Assembly (NCBI GenBank): GCA_040954595.2
Contig: CM082587.2
Location: 4,730,093-4,794,092, forward strand
Direction of reading: 5' to 3'
DNA from: Balanoglossus misakiensis
Lineage: Eukaryota; Animalia; Hemichordata
Length of the DNA stretch: 64,000 nucleotides
Shown: one piece after another, positions 10,386 through 34,897 of the stretch
Layout of the letters: each line of letters begins with the position of its first letter
How positions within the stretch are numbered: position 1 is the first letter of the stretch
Program-made: the position numbers and the translations under genes
Notes under the pieces: generated by a model
What the model saw: the letters and a program-made list of their open reading frames with translations, nothing else
Told to the model about the DNA's origin: nothing
The model's database searches: none

Positions 10386-12946
10386 CTAGTCCGAACCTTC
10401 TTTGATGACGGGTCGCATCTTGATTTCCGTTCGCTTCAGCGAGTACTTCATGTCCAGCCAGTCGTACCAGACGATCCCGCGACCCCACGCGTTGTTCGGT
10501 CCGCGGAGGTACTGGCCGTTCAGGTTGGACATGCTGCAGCTGCTGAACCACCAGGCGCCGGTGAAGCGCTGGGCGCAGTTGTGGTTGCCGCTGCGGTCGT
10601 TGTCGTTGTCCCGGGTGGTGAACTGTCTGCCTTTGTCGAATTTCATGGCGTCGCCTGCAACGATCAGGGAGAGGTGTGATATCAAAGGTGGATGAACAAA
10701 CTCCTGAGTCCGACTCATTTGCGAAATGTTCACATATAACCCTATAGTGTCCACCCCCATCACGAATCTGTAGCCCTCGCGTTTCTACGGGCCATCGTTA
10801 ATTGTGAATGATTCATTAGTAAAATGACCTCACCTGCATCTCCGCTATAGGACCCCAGTGTCAGTCTGTATTTGTCGCCCTCATCGCTGATGGCAAAATC
10901 ATCGTACTTGGCGTATCTCGTTTCATTTTCAAAGTTCTCCAAATCCACCCTGAGTTCGTACTGACGGCCCTGGTTGGTCAGACGGTGAATCTTGTCGTTG
11001 CCCAGCCAGAACTCTCCGTTCAGATCTCCGAATCCGTTCTTGTAGTCGTCCCAAGATCGATAGAAATCTTCAGACCCGTCCTGCCTTCTTTGCACGATCT
11101 GTAAGCACACGTGCTCCTTGTCAAAATGTGAACTTACACGAGATAAACTAGTATTTCGTATGTACTGTATAAGGGCGATTTGGTTGCAAAAACGGGGAAA
11201 ACTGAGTAATAAAACGTACACAACAAAAACTAAAAAACTTCAAAGTTCATTTCGGGTCAAGAACATTCATCTTGTTCAGTTGTCACGTGCAATTGCTTGT
11301 CAACAAGTTCAACTGAACGGTTCACGAACACTTTATGCTTATACGTGTACCACGTCCCCATTAAAGTACACCAGCTTACCGTCCAACCTCCTGAATCCGT
11401 TTGCATGTCACAATAGACTTGGAACGGTTTGGTATCGTTGTGAGACTGAATCGTGTACACACCACTCCGCTGTACGTCACGGCAATCCTCGACGCTTTCG
11501 TAAACCTTTCCTGTGAGAGAAAGTAAAACGGATCGGTTATAGGGGGTGTACGTGTAGACTAGTCCTCAACACAAGCACTGTTAGAAAAAAAGTGAAAAGC
11601 GGGGAATTAAATGATACTTTTGAACTGAAATATCCCAAGTGTTACCTGTATATGTCGCCTTACCTTCGACAGTTGTCGTTACTGGTAATACTGCAGCAGC
11701 AGTCGGGATAACTCTTTGAACACCTTTCGTCGCGGACTCGCAATTCCCACGTCTTAGTTCTTCCATGGCCGAGTTCAGCTCCTCAACTAGTGTAGCATAT
11801 CTGTCATTATCTTTCTGGAGTTCGACTATCTGGCTTTCCCGCTCCGACATCTGACCTTGGAGATGTCGCACATGGGTTCGAAGTTCTTCGGAACTGCCTG
11901 TCTCTTTGCGCAGCGCTTCTTTTGTGTCATTTAACTCTGGAATTAATTAAAACGACTACATTTGATGTACATAAATTCGAGAACATGGCAAATGTTATCT
12001 CATAATTTGTTTCAGAGAGCAGAAAATGACTAAATCAGGCTTGTGGCATCAAAGAAAGACTGCTAGATACATTTTCGGCAGTTTTCATTTAGCAGTACAT
12101 ATACTGTATTGTATTTTTACAAATACATCTTGCCAGTGATGAGTTGCTTTTTTTTCTTGTGACAAAATACTTATCCCGAGTTTCAGTCTTACCATTCAGG
12201 CAGCCGTTGACGTCATTTTGAAATTCTGTTGCTTGATTGGTCAATATGTGCAGCGTGTTGCGGAGTCTGTCTATTTCTGCCTGATGTCTGTGGTTATTGG
12301 TGTGAAGCCTGGCCTCCTCTCTTCGCCTCCCTCTCTCGCCTTCTTCCACCTGGTTTCTGTTCTGCACTTTAATCATCTGCTCCATGAAGTCATACTTTTC
12401 CGTTTCCAGGGCGTGCTTCTGACGCTCCAGCTCGTCGGCCCGCGCCAGGAGTTGCAGGATCATCGACTTCAGCCGTTCGTTTTCCCCGCCGAGGCCGAGT
12501 ATCCACTGGCGCAGCTCGCTGACCGTGTCGTCGGCGACGCAGATGTCGCTGACCGCGGTGCAGATCTCCGGGCAGTCGTCGCCGCTTTCGTTGGGGCCGA
12601 TCGGCTGCGAGAACACGTAGGTGCAGCTGTCGCCGTGCTTGAAGACCGATGCCTGGTCTTTCCGGCTGCCGCAGTGAGAGATCTTTGTCTGCAGTTGCAG
12701 TATCAGGTCATTCACAGCGCTGTCGTCCCAGCACAATTGTTCGTAGGTCTCACAAAGCTCGCGGCAATCCTCGCCTCTGATATGCGGGATCAACAAAGTA
12801 TAAACGCACCGGTCCCCTTGTCTCAGTACGCCATGTTGGCCCTCGAATTCAGCTGCTGTCGCCAGCAATGTGCAAACACACAGTACCATGTACACAAACA
12901 TAGAGCAATAACAAGTCCGGAGATAAGGTAAACCCCGCAACGCCAT
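10386..12946 (-). CDS. Secreted fibrinogen-related (angiopoietin-like) protein, paralog 1; exons ~12946-12193, 11936-11664, 11511-11380, 11098-10834, 10654-10386
   Basis: Signal peptide, two CxYxF/L motifs, coiled coil, fibrinogen C-terminal domain motifs VYCDMQTDSGGWT, QRRQDGSEDFYRSWDDYKNGFGDLNGEFWLGNDKIH, FTTRDNDND, GAWWFSSCSMSNLNG. Confidence 0.93.
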
Positions 12947-13125
12947 TTCAACAGGTGGCTACTAGATTTTTCGACGTTAACTTGGATCTATGGGACTTCG
13001 TGATTATATGACCCTCTTTGCTTACGCGCAAGAAGACTTTGTCATCGGAATGACACGACGAAACGTGATGTGTTGACTTCTTGGTGGCACAGTCTTATTA
13101 TGCAAATGCGATAAATCGGTGAATA

Positions 13126-18245: not shown

Positions 18246-20783
18246 TTATTTCCAGGTGGGTCTTATCTTGATTTCTGTTCGCTTCATAGAATACTGCATG
18301 TCCAGCCAGTCGTACCACACGATACCCCGACCCCAAGCGCTGTGGGCGCCGGCGAGGTAGCGCCCGTTCAGGTTGGACAGACTGCAGCCGTTGAACCACC
18401 AGGCGCCGGTGAAACGCACGGCACAGTTGTGGTTGAACGAGTTGTCGTTGTCGTGGTCTTTGGTGGTGAATTGTTGACCGTCGTTAAATCTCAGTGAATT
18501 GCCTGTAATGATCAGTGAAAATACATGTTTAATGCTGGGACAAAGATGGTAGATATAAAACGTAATACAAACATTGGATCATTTGGTTCAATATCCACGT
18601 GCAACAGAAAAGCGCTTGCTTCAGAATCTAATCCTGCCTCCTATTCAATGTTCTTGCTTTATTGAACAAACCTGCATCTCCGCTATAGGACCCCAGTGTC
18701 AGCCTGTATTTGTCGCCCTCATCGCCGATGGCAAAAGTATCGTACTTGGCGTATCTCGTTTCATTTTCAAAGTTATCCAAGTCCACCCTGAGTTCGTAAC
18801 GGCGTTCCTGATTGGTCAGGCGATGGATCTTGTCGTTGCCCAGCCAAAACTCTCCGTTCAGATCTCCAAATCCGTTCTTGTAGTCATCCCAAGATCGATA
18901 GAAATCTTCAGACCCGTCCTGTCTTCTCTGCAGAACCTAGGTGCACGGGGCAAATACGTCGAACGTATCATTATGGAGAAATACCAGTGGTGGTAATGTC
19001 ATATCCGAAAACTGTTAAAACTACCCGGCATGCATTTTATTGCACAGTGCACAAATTCTCCTTAGGCTTTGGATAAGGCGTAAATTCCGCCCATTGTCTA
19101 TAAATCATATCTTACTATGGTCGAGAAACGACCATCTCTTAGACACGGAGCGATATGAACAGCATCAGCGCTTGGACATCATCTTACCGTCCAACCTCCC
19201 GAATCGGTCTCCATGTCGCAATAGACTTGGAACGGTTTGCCTTCGTCATCCGGGTGAACTTGGTACACTCCACTCCACTGTACGTCATAGCAATCCTTCA
19301 AGTTCTCGTAAACAGATCCTGCGCGGAGATTGATGTTTTTATCATTACAGTGGCAAACAGAATGACAAATTACAGGAAAAATGCAATCGGATGTGAGATG
19401 ATTATCAAATGATTTATCAAAAGGCGTACAAGTGATATTTGAAGACTCGGCCGCAATTAAGTTTGCTGGTTCTTTTAATTACTATATTTTCTAGAATTGA
19501 ACAATTAAGAATAAACATTTACCGGTCGCCTTACCTACAGTTGTTGTTGAAGCCCTGGTCGAGCTCCCCGTCGGACTAACTGTGCGCGCGGTTTTTGTCA
19601 TTTCTATATCGGCATCCTTAACATTTGCTGTAGGCCTAACAGAATTCAAATCTTCAATGCATTTTTCGTGTAATTTCTGAAGCTCGGCCATCTGCCCACC
19701 GATCTCCGACATTTGATCTTGAAGATGACGCATCTCGGCTCGAAATTCTTCGACATTCTGTAGTTCTTGCCTAAGGTTTCCTTGGGTTTCGTTCAATTCT
19801 GCAATTAATCGATAGTACCGGTCTCAGTGCAGAAAATGATAATTATGTAAATTTGATTTTCCTCCGTTGTAAAGTTGAGAAAGACAAGCGAAGGTCTGTT
19901 GTGTCAAACAAGACAACGTTGTTGTGTCCTCAATGGAAGGTCATCATTCAAGTTCATGACTTAATCGTGTCCTCTCCTACAAATACAATGCATGATAGTG
20001 ACCGTGTTTCGCGTCATTCAAAGCCATGTACGGCATATTTCAGGGACTCGCAGCGCATTTATTCTTACCGTTCATACAGCTATCAATGTCACTCCGATAC
20101 TCCAACGTCTGGTTTGTCAATGCGCTCACCGTGTTACGGAGTCTTTCTATCTCCGACTGGTGTCTTTCGTTCATCGTTTGAGCTCTGGACTCTTCTCGTC
20201 GGAGGCGTTCTTCCAGTATTTGATTCCTGATCTGCAGTTTCTTGGCTGTTACGTTGTACTGTATTTCCATCTCAGCGGCCCGTGTGTAATACTGCGCTAT
20301 TCTGCTCTTCAGGCGTTCGTTCTCCCCGCCCAGGTTGTGGACCCACTCCCGCAGTTCGCCGACTGTGTCGTCGGGCACGCAGACCTCGGCCACGGCATCA
20401 CAGACCTCGGGGCAGTGGTCGCCCTCCTTCGGTCTCCGCTGCGAGAACACGTACGTGCAGCTGTCCCCTTGCTTGAACGTAGTCAGCTGGGTTTCCCGGT
20501 TGCTGCAGCGGGAGAGCTTGGTCCGCAGCCGCCGCACAAGCTCGTTCACCGCGTCGTCCTCCGAGCACAGGCGCGCGTAGATCGCGCACAGTTCCCGGCA
20601 CTCCTCGCCCGGGTCGTGCGTGATCAGCAGCGTGTGCACACACCTGTCCCCTTGTCTCAATACGCCATGTTGGCTCTCGAGCTTGGCCGATGTCAACGGC
20701 GTACACACAGCCAACACCAGGCAAACAACGAACCAGCGACAACAAATCAAATTCCGTGCGCAAGACGATTCCCCAGTCTTCAT
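18246..20783 (-). CDS. Secreted fibrinogen-related (angiopoietin-like) protein, paralog 2; five exons
   Basis: Same exon layout as paralog 1; GDRCVHTLLI and GDSCTYVFSQ motifs, coiled coil, VYCDMETDSGGWT, GAWWFNGCSLSNLNG, ends EIKIRPTWK* at 18246. Confidence 0.92.
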
Positions 20784-20954
20784 TCCAACAGGTGTCTGTT
20801 GTCAGACGTTCCACGTTCGACCTTCATGAATCTGCCAGCACCAGCGAGCCCCGGTGTCGATACGAACAGTGATCGGGGAGGTTATATTTGATGTGTACGC
20901 TTATTTACACCTTCTTTAAGTACCCAATCCAATAAAACCAATTATCGCCCAATC

Positions 20955-23900: not shown

Positions 23901-24257
23901 GAATCTCCAGAGAGGGGACACGGACAGACGGACATACAGACAGCCATGAATGAATGCATGCATGCAGACAGACAGACAGACAAATTCTCGACGTTAATCT
24001 GATCAACAGTGGCATTTCCTGGTTATCAATCACTCACCTGCCACACGATTGATCAATTAATCGATTATTTAAATACATGACCACATAGTACGGAATACAC
24101 ACATAATGAATACAAAAGACGAGCGCAAATTTATCGACCACGTGACCACCTGTTGATTCTGTGGGTATTTGTATCATGATAAAATCACGCATTTACCTTA
24201 AATTTTTAATATAGAATATAATTTTCTACTTTTTTGTTCTAGTTATAACCATCAACC

Positions 24258-27200
24258 ATGTCTTGGAGTAGTAATCCGGCTGCCGCTAACGTCAGCATTT
24301 TACGCGGAGAGCGAGTGTCGTTTCCGTTCGACTTGCCGGCGACTTCAATACACAGCACTCTGGAACATCTCGTCATCCCGTACTTCGGTGGCACGGCCGG
24401 CGAGAGAACGGCCATCATTGACGGCGAGAAGAGAGTCACTTTCAGCGAACTCAACGCCAGGGCGAACGCCCTCGCCAAGGCAATCAGGAAACGCCTGATC
24501 GTGAAAAGATGGCAGACCCCGGCGTGCATCGGGATTCACATGGAACCGTCGGACAATGTCATCGTTGCAATATTTGCCATCCTCAAGCTGGGACTCGCGT
24601 ATTTGCCGCTGGATACGACGTACCCCACCAAACGATTATCGCGAATGATTGAGCAGAGTAAGCCGGTGTGCGTCTTGACGACGGAGGGGGCGCTCAGCGA
24701 CGCCATGAACGCGGTGCTCAGGGACGTCTCTGCGGGCAGCGCACCGCAGGTGTTTCTGATCAACGAGCTTGAGAACGGGGATGAAAACAAGAATCTGTAC
24801 CGGTCGTACCGGCTGGACGAGCACGACAAACTCATGTCCAACGGCGACTCGGCGACCGCCTGTGTTTTGTATACGTCAGGATCCACCGGGTTGCCGAAGG
24901 GCGTCATCATCTCCCACAGGGCCATCCTGCACCGCGTCTCGGCTCTCTGGAACTCCTTCAATTTCACCAGCAAAGACGTGGGCTGCTTCAAGGCCTGTCT
25001 CAGCTACGTCGACGCCATCACTGAAATATTCGGCTTCCTGCTGCGCGGGAGCGCCGTCGTAGTCGCCCCGCGCTGCATCACCTCCACGCCGGCGAGATTC
25101 ATCGACCTGCTTGACAAGCACGACGTCACGTGGTTGCTGCTGACGCCCACTCTCCTGGACGACATTGTGAAATTCCTATCGCAGCAGCAGCAGCAGTCGG
25201 GTTCCGGAGTGCTGCAGCCGCTGAAATTCTGGGTCATGACCGGAGAAGTGCTGACGATTCCATTGGCGGAGAAATTCTTCGAGTTGTTTCCAGGCAGAAC
25301 ACTGTGTTACCTCTGGGGGGCAACCGAGCTCACCGGTGACGTCACTTTCTCCGAGTACACTAGTGACGACATAGAAAACTGCAAAAAGCTGGGTAAAATA
25401 CCCATAGGCACGCCGATTCAAAACACCAACATTTATGTGCTGGACGAGCAGATGCAACCGGTCGATATAAGCGAGCCTGGGATAGCATACGTCAGCGGGC
25501 CCAATTTGAGCGACGGCTACTTGAATGGCACGGCCAGCGACATCAACGGTGGGTTGTACAACGGCAACGGTGCGCGCGGAAAGGTGCGCAAGGAGCCCAA
25601 ACGATTCCGCTACAACCCGTTCGACTACCACCCGCAGCACGGCACGCTCTACAACACCGGCGACTACGTGCGAGCCATGAGGGGGGCACCCGGGACGGGG
25701 GACGTGCAGCTGGTGTTCGAGGGGCGGACCGACTCCCGTGTGAAGATCAGAGGCTTCGGGGTCGATTTGACCGAAATCGAAACGGGAGTGTACGAGGTGC
25801 CCGGTATCATGAGTTCACATGTCTTCTGTCACACGGATGAGGACGACAGCAGACTGGTGGTGGCTTACTACACAGCTCGCGATATGAGCCCTGGCAGTGA
25901 TCCAGAGACTGTCATAGACTACCTGCGCACAACCCTCCCATCCTTCAGCCTCCCTCAGGGCGTGTTACGAGTTTACAGCTTCCCCTTGTTACCAAATGGT
26001 GAGTTTGTAATCTATAGCTTTCTGTATTTTATATCAGCTTTGATTTTGAATCAACTATTTCCCCGGGTATTTCCTCTGGAAGTTTTGAAAACTCCCGAGA
26101 CAGAATAGTAAAGAATGGGCTTCAACAAACACTTGTCAAAACAAAAGAGGATAACACATACTCGGAACAACTTATCCAAGCATTCTTTAATCCTCCGAAC
26201 CCAGCTCAAGGATTTCTGAATGACATCATACGTCATCAGGGTTAAGGGTGCAAAAGGTTAAGCTACTGTAGACTTTATTTTGCTCGTCTGAATCGACAAA
26301 ACCCCAACCCTCACACAGAATGCAATTACAGCCAAACCTGTATATGTTGTTATTTTTCAGGCAAAATCGACGCGGATTCCTTATTTGAAATGTATAAGGA
26401 TTCATTGCTGACACCAGAAAAACTCGAAGAAAAGATGGAAGAAAGACGAGCCAGGGAAGCGGAGCAGCAGAGGCAACATGAAGAGGAGTTGGAGAGACGA
26501 GCAGAAGAGGAGAGACAGAGGGAGGAAGACATGGTCAAGAAAGCCGAAGAGAGGAGGAAACACTTGGAAGAGATGATGAAGAAAGTGCAGGAGGAAGAAG
26601 AGCGAAGGGCGGAGGAAAGAGAGAGGAGGCTGGAGCAGATGAGGAGAGACATGCAGGAGAGGGAGGAAGAGCTGGAGAGGATAAGAATGGAGGCGGAGCA
26701 GAGGAGGGAAGAAGAGGAAAGAGCTCTGGAAGAAGAACTGGACAAGGAGATACGAGAAGCATTTGCAATCTCAGAGGAGGAAGTGCACGTTGAGGAAGAC
26801 AGAACAGTGGATGCTGAAGCCAAGCAGGAAAGTGAGGGTGAAGAAGAAGAAGGTGAAGACAAAGAGGAAGAGACGCATGCTGAGGAAGTTGGGGAGGAAA
26901 TGAAAGAGGCTAGTGATGAAGAAAAGGGAGAGGATGCCGCAGAGGAGAAAGGGGAGGAAGAACAGGAGTCTGATGAAGAATCTTCAAAGAAGGATGGTGA
27001 CGATGATGATGATCAAGAATCTGACAAAGAGTCGGAGAAAACAAGCGAGGAAGAATCATCAGACAATGAGTCGGAGAAGAAGGATGAAGAGCAGGGGCCT
27101 GACCAAGAGACTGACAAGAAGGACGACGCAGAGGAGGAGGAGGAGGGAGCAGAGTCTGACGAGGATATCGTAGAAGCGGACCATCCGATCGAAGAAGCGT

Positions 27201-29157
27201 CAAAACCAGCCGTGATCAAACTGACGGAAGACCACGCGGCAGAGCAGGCAATGTTGGTAACCATGGAGGAAAAGCAGGAAAATGGACCAAAAGTGGATGA
27301 TGGTGGTGATGGTGTTGATGGTGGTAGTGACAAAGTGGATAAAAGCAAGGATGACCACTTGATAGAGGAGGTTGTTGAGGAACTCGTCAAACAAGCTGAA
27401 CTGAACGAAGAGATGAGGCAGGCCGAGGAACCGGAAGGTGCTGAGAAAAAGGAAGGAACGCCCGACTCTGACAGCTCTGTCGAGAAGAACGCAGACCAGC
27501 CTGCAAAGCAAAAGGCGCCGACACCTCCTAACACACCCACCGAGGAGATGAATGGAAATGATAAGTCTTCATCGTGGTCATCATCTCCGGAACGCTCATT
27601 ATCGCCATCGTCTTCATCATCATCATCATCATCCGACGATGAGGACGAGAAAGGCGTTGCCAAAGATGCGACGCCTGATGTATGCAGAGAAATAGAGGGC
27701 GAAGAAAATGGCGACACTGACACCAAGAGGGGCGATACAGAAAATGGCGATGTGAAGGAAGAGGCGGGCGAAACAGAAGTAAAGAAAGAGGTTGAATCTG
27801 AGACCATTGCGGAGAAGAAGGAAGAAGAAGAGGTCGAAGTAGTACCACCGGTTCCTGAAAAATCACCCGAAGAAAAACTTGTGTTATCTGTAGTCTCCGA
27901 CATCCTCAGATTAGGTGAAGATGATTTCACTCTGGAAGACAACTACTTTAAACTGGGAGGTGATTCCAGTAAGTAAGAATCTATTATGTGTGTGTTATTT
28001 CAAAATTAGGATAATTTGTTATTTTTATCAAAAGCGCCGCAAATATAAGGTCATCTTAGTGTAATTACTCTCAAATCGAACACTGTACCCTTGCCCATTG
28101 AAATTGATAAATGTTTTATTTTTTATTGCAGTTAACGCAGTAGAAACAGTGGAACATTTGAAAGGCGGCGGTCTGGAAATGAATATGCCCTACTTCTTCC
28201 AGGCCGACACCCTCGGAGATCTCACGAAGTGCGAGACTCCCGCAGAGAGTGAGTTAAGCGTCGAATTTGAAGTCCCCGGATACGAACTGGTCTCCATGCA
28301 CGACTCCACAGTCAGGGAGCTGGAGAGGGGCTGTCAGTTAGCGGTGGACGGGTTCGTGAGGACGGAGCCCCTGACGGCGGCGGTCGACATCCCCGAGGAG
28401 GAGAAGAAGGCGTTCCTGGACACCGGCATGAAGATGGTCGCCATCGACGGGAAGGACTACTCGTTCCTGTTGCGCCAGGCGGGAAACCGCAAGATCGTCG
28501 GCATGGTGATCAACATGGACTTCCACGAACGCAAAGTGGACGAGTCCGGCGCCACGGAACAGATACACATGCCCAAGCTGAAGGCGTTCGCGACGTACAG
28601 CGCTCACCTGGAGAAGACGGCGCGTGACTTGGTGGACGTGAAGGAGGCTAAGCAGTGGTTGATACGGTTGGCCACGGTTCTATCCGAGGATGTGGATATT
28701 GGTGTAAAAGCCTCCTTACAGAAACTGATGGAGACAGGTACGTTCGCCGTCCCTTATAAGAACGACTTGCTTTGATTTTCGGTTAGCCATGCCAGCTAAC
28801 CAAATGTCCTATTTGTATAGGTGCTATATGACTGAATCTTTGCCGTACAGGTTTGGGATCGGTGTTACCAGTGTGTCACTAAAGACTTGATAAAAGGTGT
28901 TGATTAATTGTGTTGATTAACACATTGTCTACTTTGGTCTATTTTCAGGTTCGTCGGAGGTTGCCAAAGCCAACAATTTCAAAGGCATCTGTGGAGTGTA
29001 TTCCCATCCCCTGACGACGGCGGTTGCAAGGGAAGCCGGCCTGGAAGTCAGAAGGGAGTTTGATCCGGTCAAGGACTTCGAACACGATGGCGAAAAGTGT
29101 TTTGAAGAAGTTAAACCACCGGATCTGAGATGTTACGTATTAGCTAAGGAAATTTAG
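24258..29157 (+). CDS. Ebony-like (beta-alanyl-bioamine type) non-ribosomal peptide synthetase, A - long charged insert - T - AANAT-like C-terminal domain, ~1387 aa; exons 24258-25998, 26361-27968, 28132-28737, 28949-29157
   Basis: A-domain cores TFSELNARAN, LKLGLAYLPLD, YTSGSTGLPKG, YVDAITEIFG, WGATELTGDV, YNTGDY, GRTDSRVKIRG, PLLPNG|KID; phosphopantetheine site NYFKLGGDS|INAV; C-terminal domain FVRTEPL...YSFLL...KIVGMVINMD...VAKANNFKGICGVYSHPLT...DGEKCF resembles insect Ebony; exon lengths sum to 4164 nt, open frame. Confidence 0.92.
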
Positions 29158-32821: not shown

Positions 32822-34897
32822 TTACAAGGTAGCCGACAGGAGGGATCCGCGTGGAAGTCTTCGCGCGTTCAGGGTGCTGTGTCCGAAAGTCGTACCATAC
32901 CGGAACTTCTGACCTGTAGGCAGGGAAAGAGACACAAAATTAAGCATTGGGGGCCTGTATTCCAATCTGAACGTAGCGAGTGGATGACGGTTGTCAGGTT
33001 GACAGGAGATGGTGGCTGTGTTTCGAATAGCGCCCCCAGCGCAAATCACTGAGGTGGACTGAACGTCCCCTTTAAATGCTACTGAGCCCATAGAATTTAT
33101 TGGTCAATACTGGTGTAGTTAATCTAACTTACCAGGTATATGCCCGGTATAATGCGGCACCAGACCGGATTGGATGGGATAGATGAGCTTGGTATCACGG
33201 ACCACCCTCTCCGGGCGCTCCAGGATCACAGGCTGGTTTCGACGTGCCTCGTTATTGGTGAATTCCGTCGTGAACTCATTCAGAGCGTCGTGGGTCAGAT
33301 CTGGGTAGCCCACTCCGAGCAGTCCTCTCGCCTTCGGGACGAAACCGGTGTAGCCTTGTTGAATGTAGAGGGGAATAATATACAAGAATGAGAAAATTAT
33401 GTACAATCTCCAAAATTGAGAATGTCCGCGGTACTTTCAATATGACCTCGGCCAGAAGTGGTCTCTCATCGATGTAGTGGTTGAAATGTAAACTTCTCTT
33501 ATTCGTGCCATTCATTTTTATTCCACATGTTTTTCATTCATTCATTCATTCATTCATTCATTCATTCATTCATTCATTCATTCATTCATTCATTCATTCA
33601 TTCATTCATTCACTCATTCATTCATTCACAGAATTACTATACAATAGATACCGGACATAAAACACTTCCTGGGGTTGTCGTTACTCATCCAATATGGCGA
33701 TGTACTATGTTGTTTGGAAAACTTCGACGAATACGGTTTGGCAGTAGGGGCGATGGCTTTCAGCGGCGATGGATATCGGGCTGTCAACAGCTGAAATTAC
33801 GAGCACAAAGAAACAACCGCATAATAAAGTTCTAAAGTTTAGTGTAAATTAATGCTGGTTATTCAGTTGCATAATGGACGATGTACATGCGTGTTGAGAA
33901 CAACCATGGCGGTACCACAGCACACGATTATTATTTCGGCTTACCTTTTTGGAAGCGGGATCTGTTATTCTACCAGACTGTATGGCGTTGATCGTGCGCA
34001 GCTCGTCCATCTTGCGGGAGTGGGCTCGTTGGTCGCGTTCGAAATCTGAGATGGCGTTGAGAGAACTGTCCGCGTACCTAGTGCCGAAGTAGTGTTGACC
34101 CTTGGGGATGTACCCTGTCAAGATGTTGGTAAAAATCAGAAATTGGTTAATATGAATACAAGTACACATGTATGGTGTCTGAGTCTTGTAGTGACCATAT
34201 GGTGGTGCATTTTTTTCCGCGTGTCCGCCCTAGTTAAAATCTTTAGTTGGCTAGATCTCAAATACCCATGGTAACTATGGCTACTGTCCTACCTTAATCC
34301 CGGCTCATAGCGCTTTCCTACCTCATTCTTGACACTAACAATTAGCACTATAACAAGGCTAACTAAAGTTCTTAATTTGCCTTAAAGAAATCAAGTCTTT
34401 AGGATATTAGGCAGCAGAATTGACCAGCGACAGCAAAAAGTCTCAAACTGCGTAGTTTCGAGCCCGTGATACTCAAAGTAATGTTTGTTAAGTGGAAAAA
34501 GTGGAGGGCACAAGCGTTTAGATTTACCACGTGTTTTGAACAAAAAATCCTGCTTATTGACTTTGCTAAAATTTGCGATAGGCAACTTCTTCAGGAGGGT
34601 GTCATTCTTACCTGTATATCCGGGTACCATGTTGGCCACCAACTTCTGGTCACCCCAGCTCTGGGTACGAGTTCTCAACAACTCCTCTCGGTGATCGACC
34701 TCGAATTCTGTGCTGGGACGAGGATAGGTCTCGGCCAGCACAGGGCGACCCGAGCTGGCCACTTCCGCATTGGTGAGCAGGCGCGAGGTGGTCTGACCGA
34801 AAGTCTCGCCAATCTGGTATTTGAACTGAGGGCAGAATCCGCAGTACCTGTTTTTGAGGAGGGTCAGAGATATCATATTGGATCATGATGATGACGA

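Follow-up and report, generated by a model that had tools for sequence, protein, structure and literature searches.

An acorn-worm Ebony-type enzyme carrying a long conserved insert between its adenylation and carrier domains

The 64,000-nucleotide stretch of the Balanoglossus misakiensis genome analysed here (assembly GCA_040954595.2, contig CM082587.2, positions 4,730,093 to 4,794,092, hereafter the window) carries on its plus strand a gene of the non-ribosomal peptide synthetase (NRPS) type in which 487 residues lie between the adenylation (A) domain and the carrier, or thiolation (T), domain. The gene encodes an A-T-CN enzyme of the Ebony/SmNRPS family, CN being the Ebony-type C-terminal domain; this family membership is already known, whereas the insert-bearing architecture appears to be new. 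The architecture, its conservation in two other acorn worms, the intact catalytic residues and the motifs of the insert can be read directly from the sequences, and AlphaFold predicts a long single alpha-helix followed by a disordered acidic chain. With a confidence that stands about midway between acceptance and doubt, we propose that this spacer makes the hand-off from A to T a loosely tethered, regulatable and pseudo-intermolecular step in a likely active enzyme.

The gene comprises four coding exons (24258-25998, 26361-27968, 28132-28737 and 28949-29157) that together encode 1387 amino acids, and its introns are all GT-AG and all in phase 1. Exon 1 (24258..25998, plus strand), which opens with the ATG at 24258 and has recognisable splice sites, encodes Acore and most of Asub of the adenylation domain; it matches Pfam AMP-binding (E 7e-69) and 179 solved relatives, and shares 78% identity with the Ptychodera protein P0001 and 57% with the Saccoglossus protein P0002. 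Intron 1 (25999..26360), also GT-AG and in phase 1, cuts the A10 motif LPN-GK between G and K, so that exon 2 (26361..27968) contains the end of Asub with Lys582 (26363-26365), the entire insert and the first half of the T domain with Ser1116 (27965-27967). The preliminary description of this DNA had placed the A10 Lys, an insert of about 490 residues and the carrier Ser on one open exon, and this was borne out: the 1608 nucleotides of exon 2, bounded by AG and GT and in phase 1-1, hold 535 codons without a stop, while the remaining two plus-strand frames contain 21 and 48 stops and no open frame arose in composition-matched Markov simulations of either order 1 or order 2 (0 of 2000 each). Skipping of exon 2 would keep the frame and delete both K582 and S1116, and cannot remove the insert alone, as had also been argued. 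The T (peptidyl carrier protein) domain (27863..28226, residues 1082-1148) carries a GGDS motif, with intron 2 (27969-28131) directly after the Ser codon; the 3' end of exon 2 matches Pfam PP-binding weakly (E 0.018), and the domain forms four helices in the AlphaFold model of P0001. The CN domain (28260..29157) is encoded by exon 3 (to 28737) and exon 4 (28949-29157, including the stop). A strong acceptor-like site at 24243, 15 nucleotides 5' of the ATG, suggests a non-coding upstream exon, which was not located.

The length of the insert sets the enzyme apart from its relatives. The gap from Asub to T is 487 residues in the window protein, 448 in P0001 and 406 in P0002, and between -6 and 44 in the remaining 69 of the 72 relatives in which it could be measured among 168 scanned proteins, a set that includes the best 150 of 665 CN-profile matches, so that further long-linker cases could be missed. 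The spacing from T to CN is the same as in relatives. Likewise, the distance from the A10 Lys to the carrier Ser is 534 residues here and 60-68 in six of seven insert-less Ebony-type proteins, the seventh being without the A10 Lys. Short linkers thus characterise 69 of 72 Ebony-type proteins and 256 of 257 pairs in multi-module NRPS (118 matches; median Lys-to-Ser distance 56 residues; 14 A10 motifs had no T motif after them), and the acorn-worm enzyme departs from the roughly 55-70 residues of canonical modular NRPS. The single outlier among the 257 pairs, at 645 residues, is the bacterial NRPS P0048, a tandem A-A-T arrangement in which one A has no carrier after it.

The search for orthologs called for in the preliminary description found the insert again. 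Both A-domain searches scored about 8000 candidates, and the one for longer proteins gave two close matches among 120 listed, from Ptychodera flava (P0001, 1348 aa, 78%) and Saccoglossus kowalevskii (P0002, 1320 aa, 57%), in both of which ER/K-rich sequence and then acidic sequence occupy the corresponding place between A and T. The three insert-bearing proteins form one clade with a support of 99 in both the A-domain tree (37 rows, a quick tree with midpoint root) and the T-CN tree (70 rows, also quick), and their sister group in the former consists of insert-less acorn-worm paralogs (support 100). According to a dating given in PMC4729200, the lineages of Ptychodera and Saccoglossus diverged about 373 million years ago. 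No insert-bearing ortholog from Glandiceps was present among the 120 listed matches. The insert had no usable match in the ESM Atlas, and Foldseek with the exon-2 model gave none at E <= 0.001. No account of the insert or of acorn-worm carrier proteins lacking an A domain was found in the literature searched, which extended to neither Izore 2019 nor Chen 2022.

An artefact, whether through an intron that escaped recognition, an error of assembly or a pseudogene, had to be considered, given that the insert is purine-rich and of low complexity and that its GC content at fourfold-degenerate third positions (26414-27862) is 0.40-0.52, compared with 0.78-0.80 in the A and CN domains. However, the window protein resembles P0001 to a similar degree in all its parts (identities: A 463/593, helix 90/115, T 48/66, CN 171/228), which argues against the chimeric assembly named in the preliminary description as a possible refutation, and the window contains no N. 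Acceptor-like sites within exon 2 are confined to the surroundings of residue 600 and to residues 1092-1099, which belong to the T domain; they have 9-10 of 15 pyrimidines, where the true acceptors have 11-13. The donor-like sites come after the helix, and consequently no GT-AG pair excises the insert cleanly. Since the insert recurs in Ptychodera and Saccoglossus and exon 2 contains no intron that could be cleanly removed, we regard an artefact as very improbable. A tandem-repeat origin of the insert was considered and rejected, as its repeats are short and degenerate and mostly multiples of 3 apart, with no satellite and no mobile element.

The family assignment rests on several lines of sequence and structural comparison. 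The domain order is that of the single-module Ebony/SmNRPS proteins, which a review describes for Ebony as A-PCP-aaNAT (PMC10510592). The C-terminal domain, which the preliminary description had read as a condensation domain, has instead the aaNAT/GNAT fold: a six-sequence profile of it matches Drosophila Ebony 6dym at E 2.8e-35, and Foldseek on the AlphaFold model of P0001 (residues 493-1348) returned 6dym first, with a TM(target) of 0.86, and then insect aaNATs. In the A-domain tree, the window protein falls in a 29-row animal Ebony-type clade (support 100), separate from six bacterial-type rows. The Saccoglossus ortholog (P0002, XP_006818424.1) is entered as Sm-NRPS-like in Table S5 of PMC10531068, where it is credited to Chen et al. 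2022. Drosophila Ebony, the beta-alanyl-biogenic-amine synthetase whose CN structure is PDB 6DYM, thus has the A-T-aaNAT-fold architecture in common with the acorn-worm enzyme, but separates A and T by about 10-25 residues instead of 487. The SmNRPS of Schistosoma and the planarian NRPS, makers of beta-alanyl-tryptamine, belong to the same family, and the published passages on them that we drew on mention no long A-T insert. Two other Ebony-type proteins, P0216 and P0178, have inserts of 100-170 residues, one of them a tandem repeat, within Acore rather than between A and T.

The enzyme has kept the residues expected of a working synthetase. The P-loop Thr, A5 Glu, A7 Asp, A8 Arg, hinge Asp, A10 Lys and T Ser are intact in the window protein, P0001 and P0002. 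The selectivity pocket, at positions that we take to correspond to the GrsA numbering, reads V-D-T-L-V-T-L-(W)-G-D-K. It retains the VD...GDK pattern of the arthropod-type Ebony relatives and differs from them at three to four positions (changes at L/M, T, L and W), and because of this combination a beta-alanine-like acid is a likely, not a certain, substrate of the A domain. In the CN domain, the segment F-V-R-T-E-P-L-T stands where Ebony (6dym) has F-Y-N-K-A-D-L-E; since E-P-L-T replaces A-D-L-E, the amine acceptor may differ from that of the fly. The residue of Ebony at this place that we take to bind the amine, Glu696, corresponds to a Thr here. The insert-bearing clade has short branches in the A-domain tree, which fit purifying selection, and the enzyme is likely still active as a beta-alanyl-type amine ligase.

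The first part of the insert is a predicted ER/K single-alpha-helix arm (26414..26833, residues 599-738) with a charge-patterned core to about 26755. The AlphaFold modelling suggested in the preliminary description gives one unbroken helix (window residues 599-738, block predicted local distance difference test (pLDDT) scores of 91-98 over model residues 11-140; residues 600-725 in P0001, pLDDT mostly >90). The estimate of about 115 residues made in that description holds for the ER/K-patterned core, of about 112 residues, although the predicted helix continues to about residue 738, reaching 140 residues and a predicted contour of 17-21 nm. In the three orthologs, the helix consists of 66-69% E, K and R, contains no Pro and no Gly, and has an excess of opposite charges at i+3/i+4 with z of 4.9 (window protein), 6.0 and 4.4, scores that 0 of 5000 shuffles reached in each case. 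The charge period is 7.0-7.4 across orthologs (7.0 in the window). A classical heptad coiled coil is not supported by the register analysis, the hydrophobic fraction at a/d being at most 0.25 in every register, although the helix does have a hydrophobic stripe with a period of 3.6 residues. An E/R/K-rich composition, a period of about seven in charge and the apparent lack of a heptad are shared with ER/K single-alpha-helix proteins and with the engineered, myosin VI-derived SPASM linkers, helices by which the effective concentration of the domains on either side is set (PMC5552854); the acorn-worm helix differs from these systems in being natural, in lying inside an enzyme and in having about 340 disordered residues after it as a buffer.

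The second part is an acidic spacer predicted to be disordered (26834..27862, residues 739-1081), with a net charge of -97 over residues 720-1081 and one aromatic residue in the window protein, a charge of -71 to -97 among the orthologs, and pLDDT values <50 apart from two short helices. Although it aligns poorly, three features are kept in all three orthologs, namely the block SD[ED][ED][VI][VI]...AVIKLT (27155..27226 in the window), PTPPN[TS]P, and three ENG triplets (residues 887, 1029 and 1041 of the window protein). The patterns were picked from the alignment and shuffle counts are therefore not blind p-values: the SD.../AVIKLT patterns were reached by 7-33 of 5000 shuffles per sequence, and three ENG triplets by 0-3 of 5000, with a shuffle mean of about 0.15. 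AVIKLT bears a resemblance to SUMO-interacting motifs, and no more than that. The amphipathic helix IEEVVEELVKQA (27353..27424) is also present in Ptychodera and was not seen in Saccoglossus; AlphaFold places it at residues 908-935, with block pLDDT up to 82-84. An AKAP-like reading of this helix was rejected, as the pattern matched weakly and in the window protein only, and 131 of 3000 shuffles matched as well.

The motif PTPPNTP (27518..27538), within the disordered region, fits the simple FBXW7 phosphodegron consensus [TS]PPx[TS]P, and PTPPN[TS]P is found in 3/3 orthologs as against 0/166 other proteins from these searches. Besides the simple consensus, PMC8955265 gives the optimal pattern [^R][PLIVMFY][PLIVM]TPP[^RG][ST], which the Saccoglossus sequence fits. 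Among the controls that the preliminary description had proposed for the insert, phosphorylation or proteolysis is the only one for which we found sequence support, through this conserved motif; the Ser-rich stretch SPERSLSPSSSS (SPERSLSP), which had been offered for the same role, is not conserved in the orthologs, and control by cations or by condensation has no specific support. The overall interpretation of the insert given in that description is only partly supported.

We infer the mode of loading and its regulation from these features. The A domain would adenylate a beta-alanine-like acid, and the compact T-CN unit at the far end of the spacer would be loaded after swinging back by means of the disordered chain, so that A and T may act as a type II pair on a tether. 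From there, the CN domain would pass the acyl group to an amine, through a pocket unlike that of insect Ebony. Free-standing bacterial A domains are described as loading separate carriers through a similar interface (PMC10510592), and a short linker is therefore not chemically required. Indeed, in the type II or free-standing pairs treated in the same review (EntE-EntB, ObiF2-ObiD and PltF-PltL), A loads its carrier without a short covalent link, whereas in the acorn-worm enzyme, an animal protein, A and T are still parts of a single chain and a long tether connects them. A simple polymer model with assumed parameters (1.5 Å per residue of helix, a persistence length of 150 Å and a chain exponent of 0.5-0.65) gives a local T concentration of 18-57 µM for the three orthologs versus 17-27 mM for a 15-residue linker, and because of this low modelled value the hand-off would be pseudo-intermolecular. 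For comparison, the effective concentration across engineered ER/K linkers of 10-30 nm is given as falling from 10 µM to 100 nM (PMC5552854). Hand-off in cis would thus be possible yet sensitive to whatever compacts, binds or removes the spacer, and other carriers could compete. The spacer is likely to be a control module as well: PTPPN[TS]P could be phosphorylated by proline-directed or GSK3 kinases and then recruit SCF-FBXW7, and partners might bind to the AVIKLT block and to the highly conserved helix.

Several observations weigh against this loosely tethered, regulated hand-off. The effective concentrations depend on the assumed parameters of a simple model, and P0001 and P0002 are RefSeq predicted proteins. 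The window sequence is one position and the Ptychodera sequence two positions off the optimal FBXW7 pattern, departures that PMC8955265 reports to be mostly weak or negative, and AVIKLT has a pLDDT <50 in a model containing Asub, T and CN. The lower synonymous GC of the insert suggests a later, low-complexity or different origin, not non-coding DNA. Besides, between P0001 and P0002 the T domain is 46% identical and Acore 64%, the largest T deficit among 16 pairs (65 columns), and the protein's own T could be under relaxed constraint; between the window protein and Ptychodera, the corresponding values are 73% for T and 78% for A. Finally, conservation of the helix equals that of the enzyme (78% identity with P0001 over its 115 aligned positions, where shuffles average 24 identities), which exceeds what a pure spacer would need, and its main role may be binding.

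This last point leads to a different account, in which the helix and the motifs bind a structure or partner that positions the enzyme, and the spacer merely loops out with little kinetic effect. Such a scaffold or anchor would fit the conservation of the helix to Ptychodera (90 of 115 positions, with 24 of the 37 uncharged ones among them; 15-34 in off-register controls), the hydrophobic stripe with a period of 3.6 residues that the helix carries in all three orthologs, and the second amphipathic helix in the spacer. Nevertheless, a tag for localisation could be placed at one end of the protein and leave A and T together, and the modelled drop of about 1000-fold in local concentration should matter unless the affinity between A and T is unusually high, for which reasons we hold this account to be unlikely.

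A further account is suggested by acorn-worm proteins that carry T and CN domains and no A domain, in which the spacer would free the A domain to charge such separate T-CN proteins, as well as paralogs with a dead A domain, in trans; activity in cis is compatible with it. The search with the CN profile recovered T-CN-T*-CN proteins in Glandiceps (P0140) and Ptychodera (P0141) and T-CN proteins in Glandiceps (P0201), Ptychodera (P0209) and Saccoglossus (P0195), that is, in three acorn worms. They cluster together (support 94, under the threshold of 95) in a 15-row acorn-worm clade (support 95) that includes the insert-bearing proteins, and in Ptychodera and Glandiceps their genes are, to judge by the lengths of the contigs, on contigs other than those of the A-containing genes. 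The Ser of the first carrier is intact in three of the five (P0140, P0141 and P0201). Such carriers would depend on an A domain supplied in trans, for which the tethered A is a natural candidate, and they give the idea of loading over a long arm or in trans, put forward in the preliminary description, an independent lead. Moreover, the single insert-less paralog found in Ptychodera, P0124, has an intact T Ser, but its A domain is degenerate: the P-loop is altered, the A10 Lys is missing and the pocket ends in GYN. The T domain of the insert-bearing clade is less conserved than expected.

However, Glandiceps also has intact insert-less A-T-CN proteins (P0121 and P0122) and A-only models (P0123 and P0125) that could load the orphan carriers, two of the five orphans (P0195 and P0209) have no Ser, so that the clade may be drifting to non-carrier roles, and the orphan gene predictions may omit an unannotated A exon. 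The insert-bearing orthologs have kept their own T Ser and CN in 3/3 cases. On this evidence, a trans-loading function is possible but doubtful. The second T of the doubled proteins P0140 and P0141 is without Ser. The two A-only models of Glandiceps are on the same contig as the intact paralogs, and P0123 ends at the position of the first intron of the window gene, so that it may be a truncated model. Searches of the ESM Atlas with the orphan P0141 gave only sub-0.9 leads to bacterial carrier-GNAT didomains, along with structural matches to Ebony and GNATs, and a homolog search with the same protein returned only itself, not even P0140, and is uninformative on fused forms.

Loosely tethered loading in cis and loading in trans may also be combined. 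Somewhat speculatively, acorn worms might possess a type II-like NRPS network, in which a slowly evolving, tethered Ebony A domain, with its helical arm of about 17-20 nm, acidic leash and kinase-gated degron, charges its own carrier as well as free T-CN and dead-A paralogs, each of which would join the activated beta-amino acid to a different amine; we advance this as a tentative proposal.

The free T-CN proteins of the acorn-worm lineage would also be in keeping with a precursor that is split, either through cleavage of the spacer by a protease or through alternative starts or ends, into A-helix and T-CN products. Long acidic disordered chains are protease-sensitive, and the spacer contains five in-frame Met codons. 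On the other hand, no conserved cleavage motif was recognised, and none of the A-containing proteins among the 7996 candidates scored (319-1015 aa) exceeded 43% identity; therefore, no short or A-only isoform of the insert-bearing ortholog is on record there. A split enzyme is consequently considered quite improbable.

A natural enzyme whose A-T spacer of 400-490 residues has persisted for some 370 million years while its catalytic residues stayed intact offers a direct test of how far carrier loading depends on covalent proximity and of whether tether length can tune NRPS flux, questions that bear on NRPS engineering. In flies, products of the Ebony family are described as sinks for neurotransmitters, and in flatworms as signals in reproduction (bioRxiv 10.1101/2023.12.06.570471). 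A regulated, diversified deuterostome Ebony family with possible free carriers would, if confirmed, extend this chemistry and bring the logic of trans-acting NRPS into an animal.

Other coding sequences were recognised on the minus strand of the window. Upstream of the NRPS gene lie an exon encoding a Fibrinogen_C domain (10760-11239, Pfam E 6e-38) and two paralogous open reading frames (12089-12958 and 20040-20801), each of which begins like a signal peptide and contains a Cys-rich segment and a coiled coil; these are likely tandem secreted fibrinogen-related genes. Downstream, at 34391-34882, an exon matches CMI2B-like (ciliary microtubule inner protein 2B) with a Pfam E of 1.8e-9.

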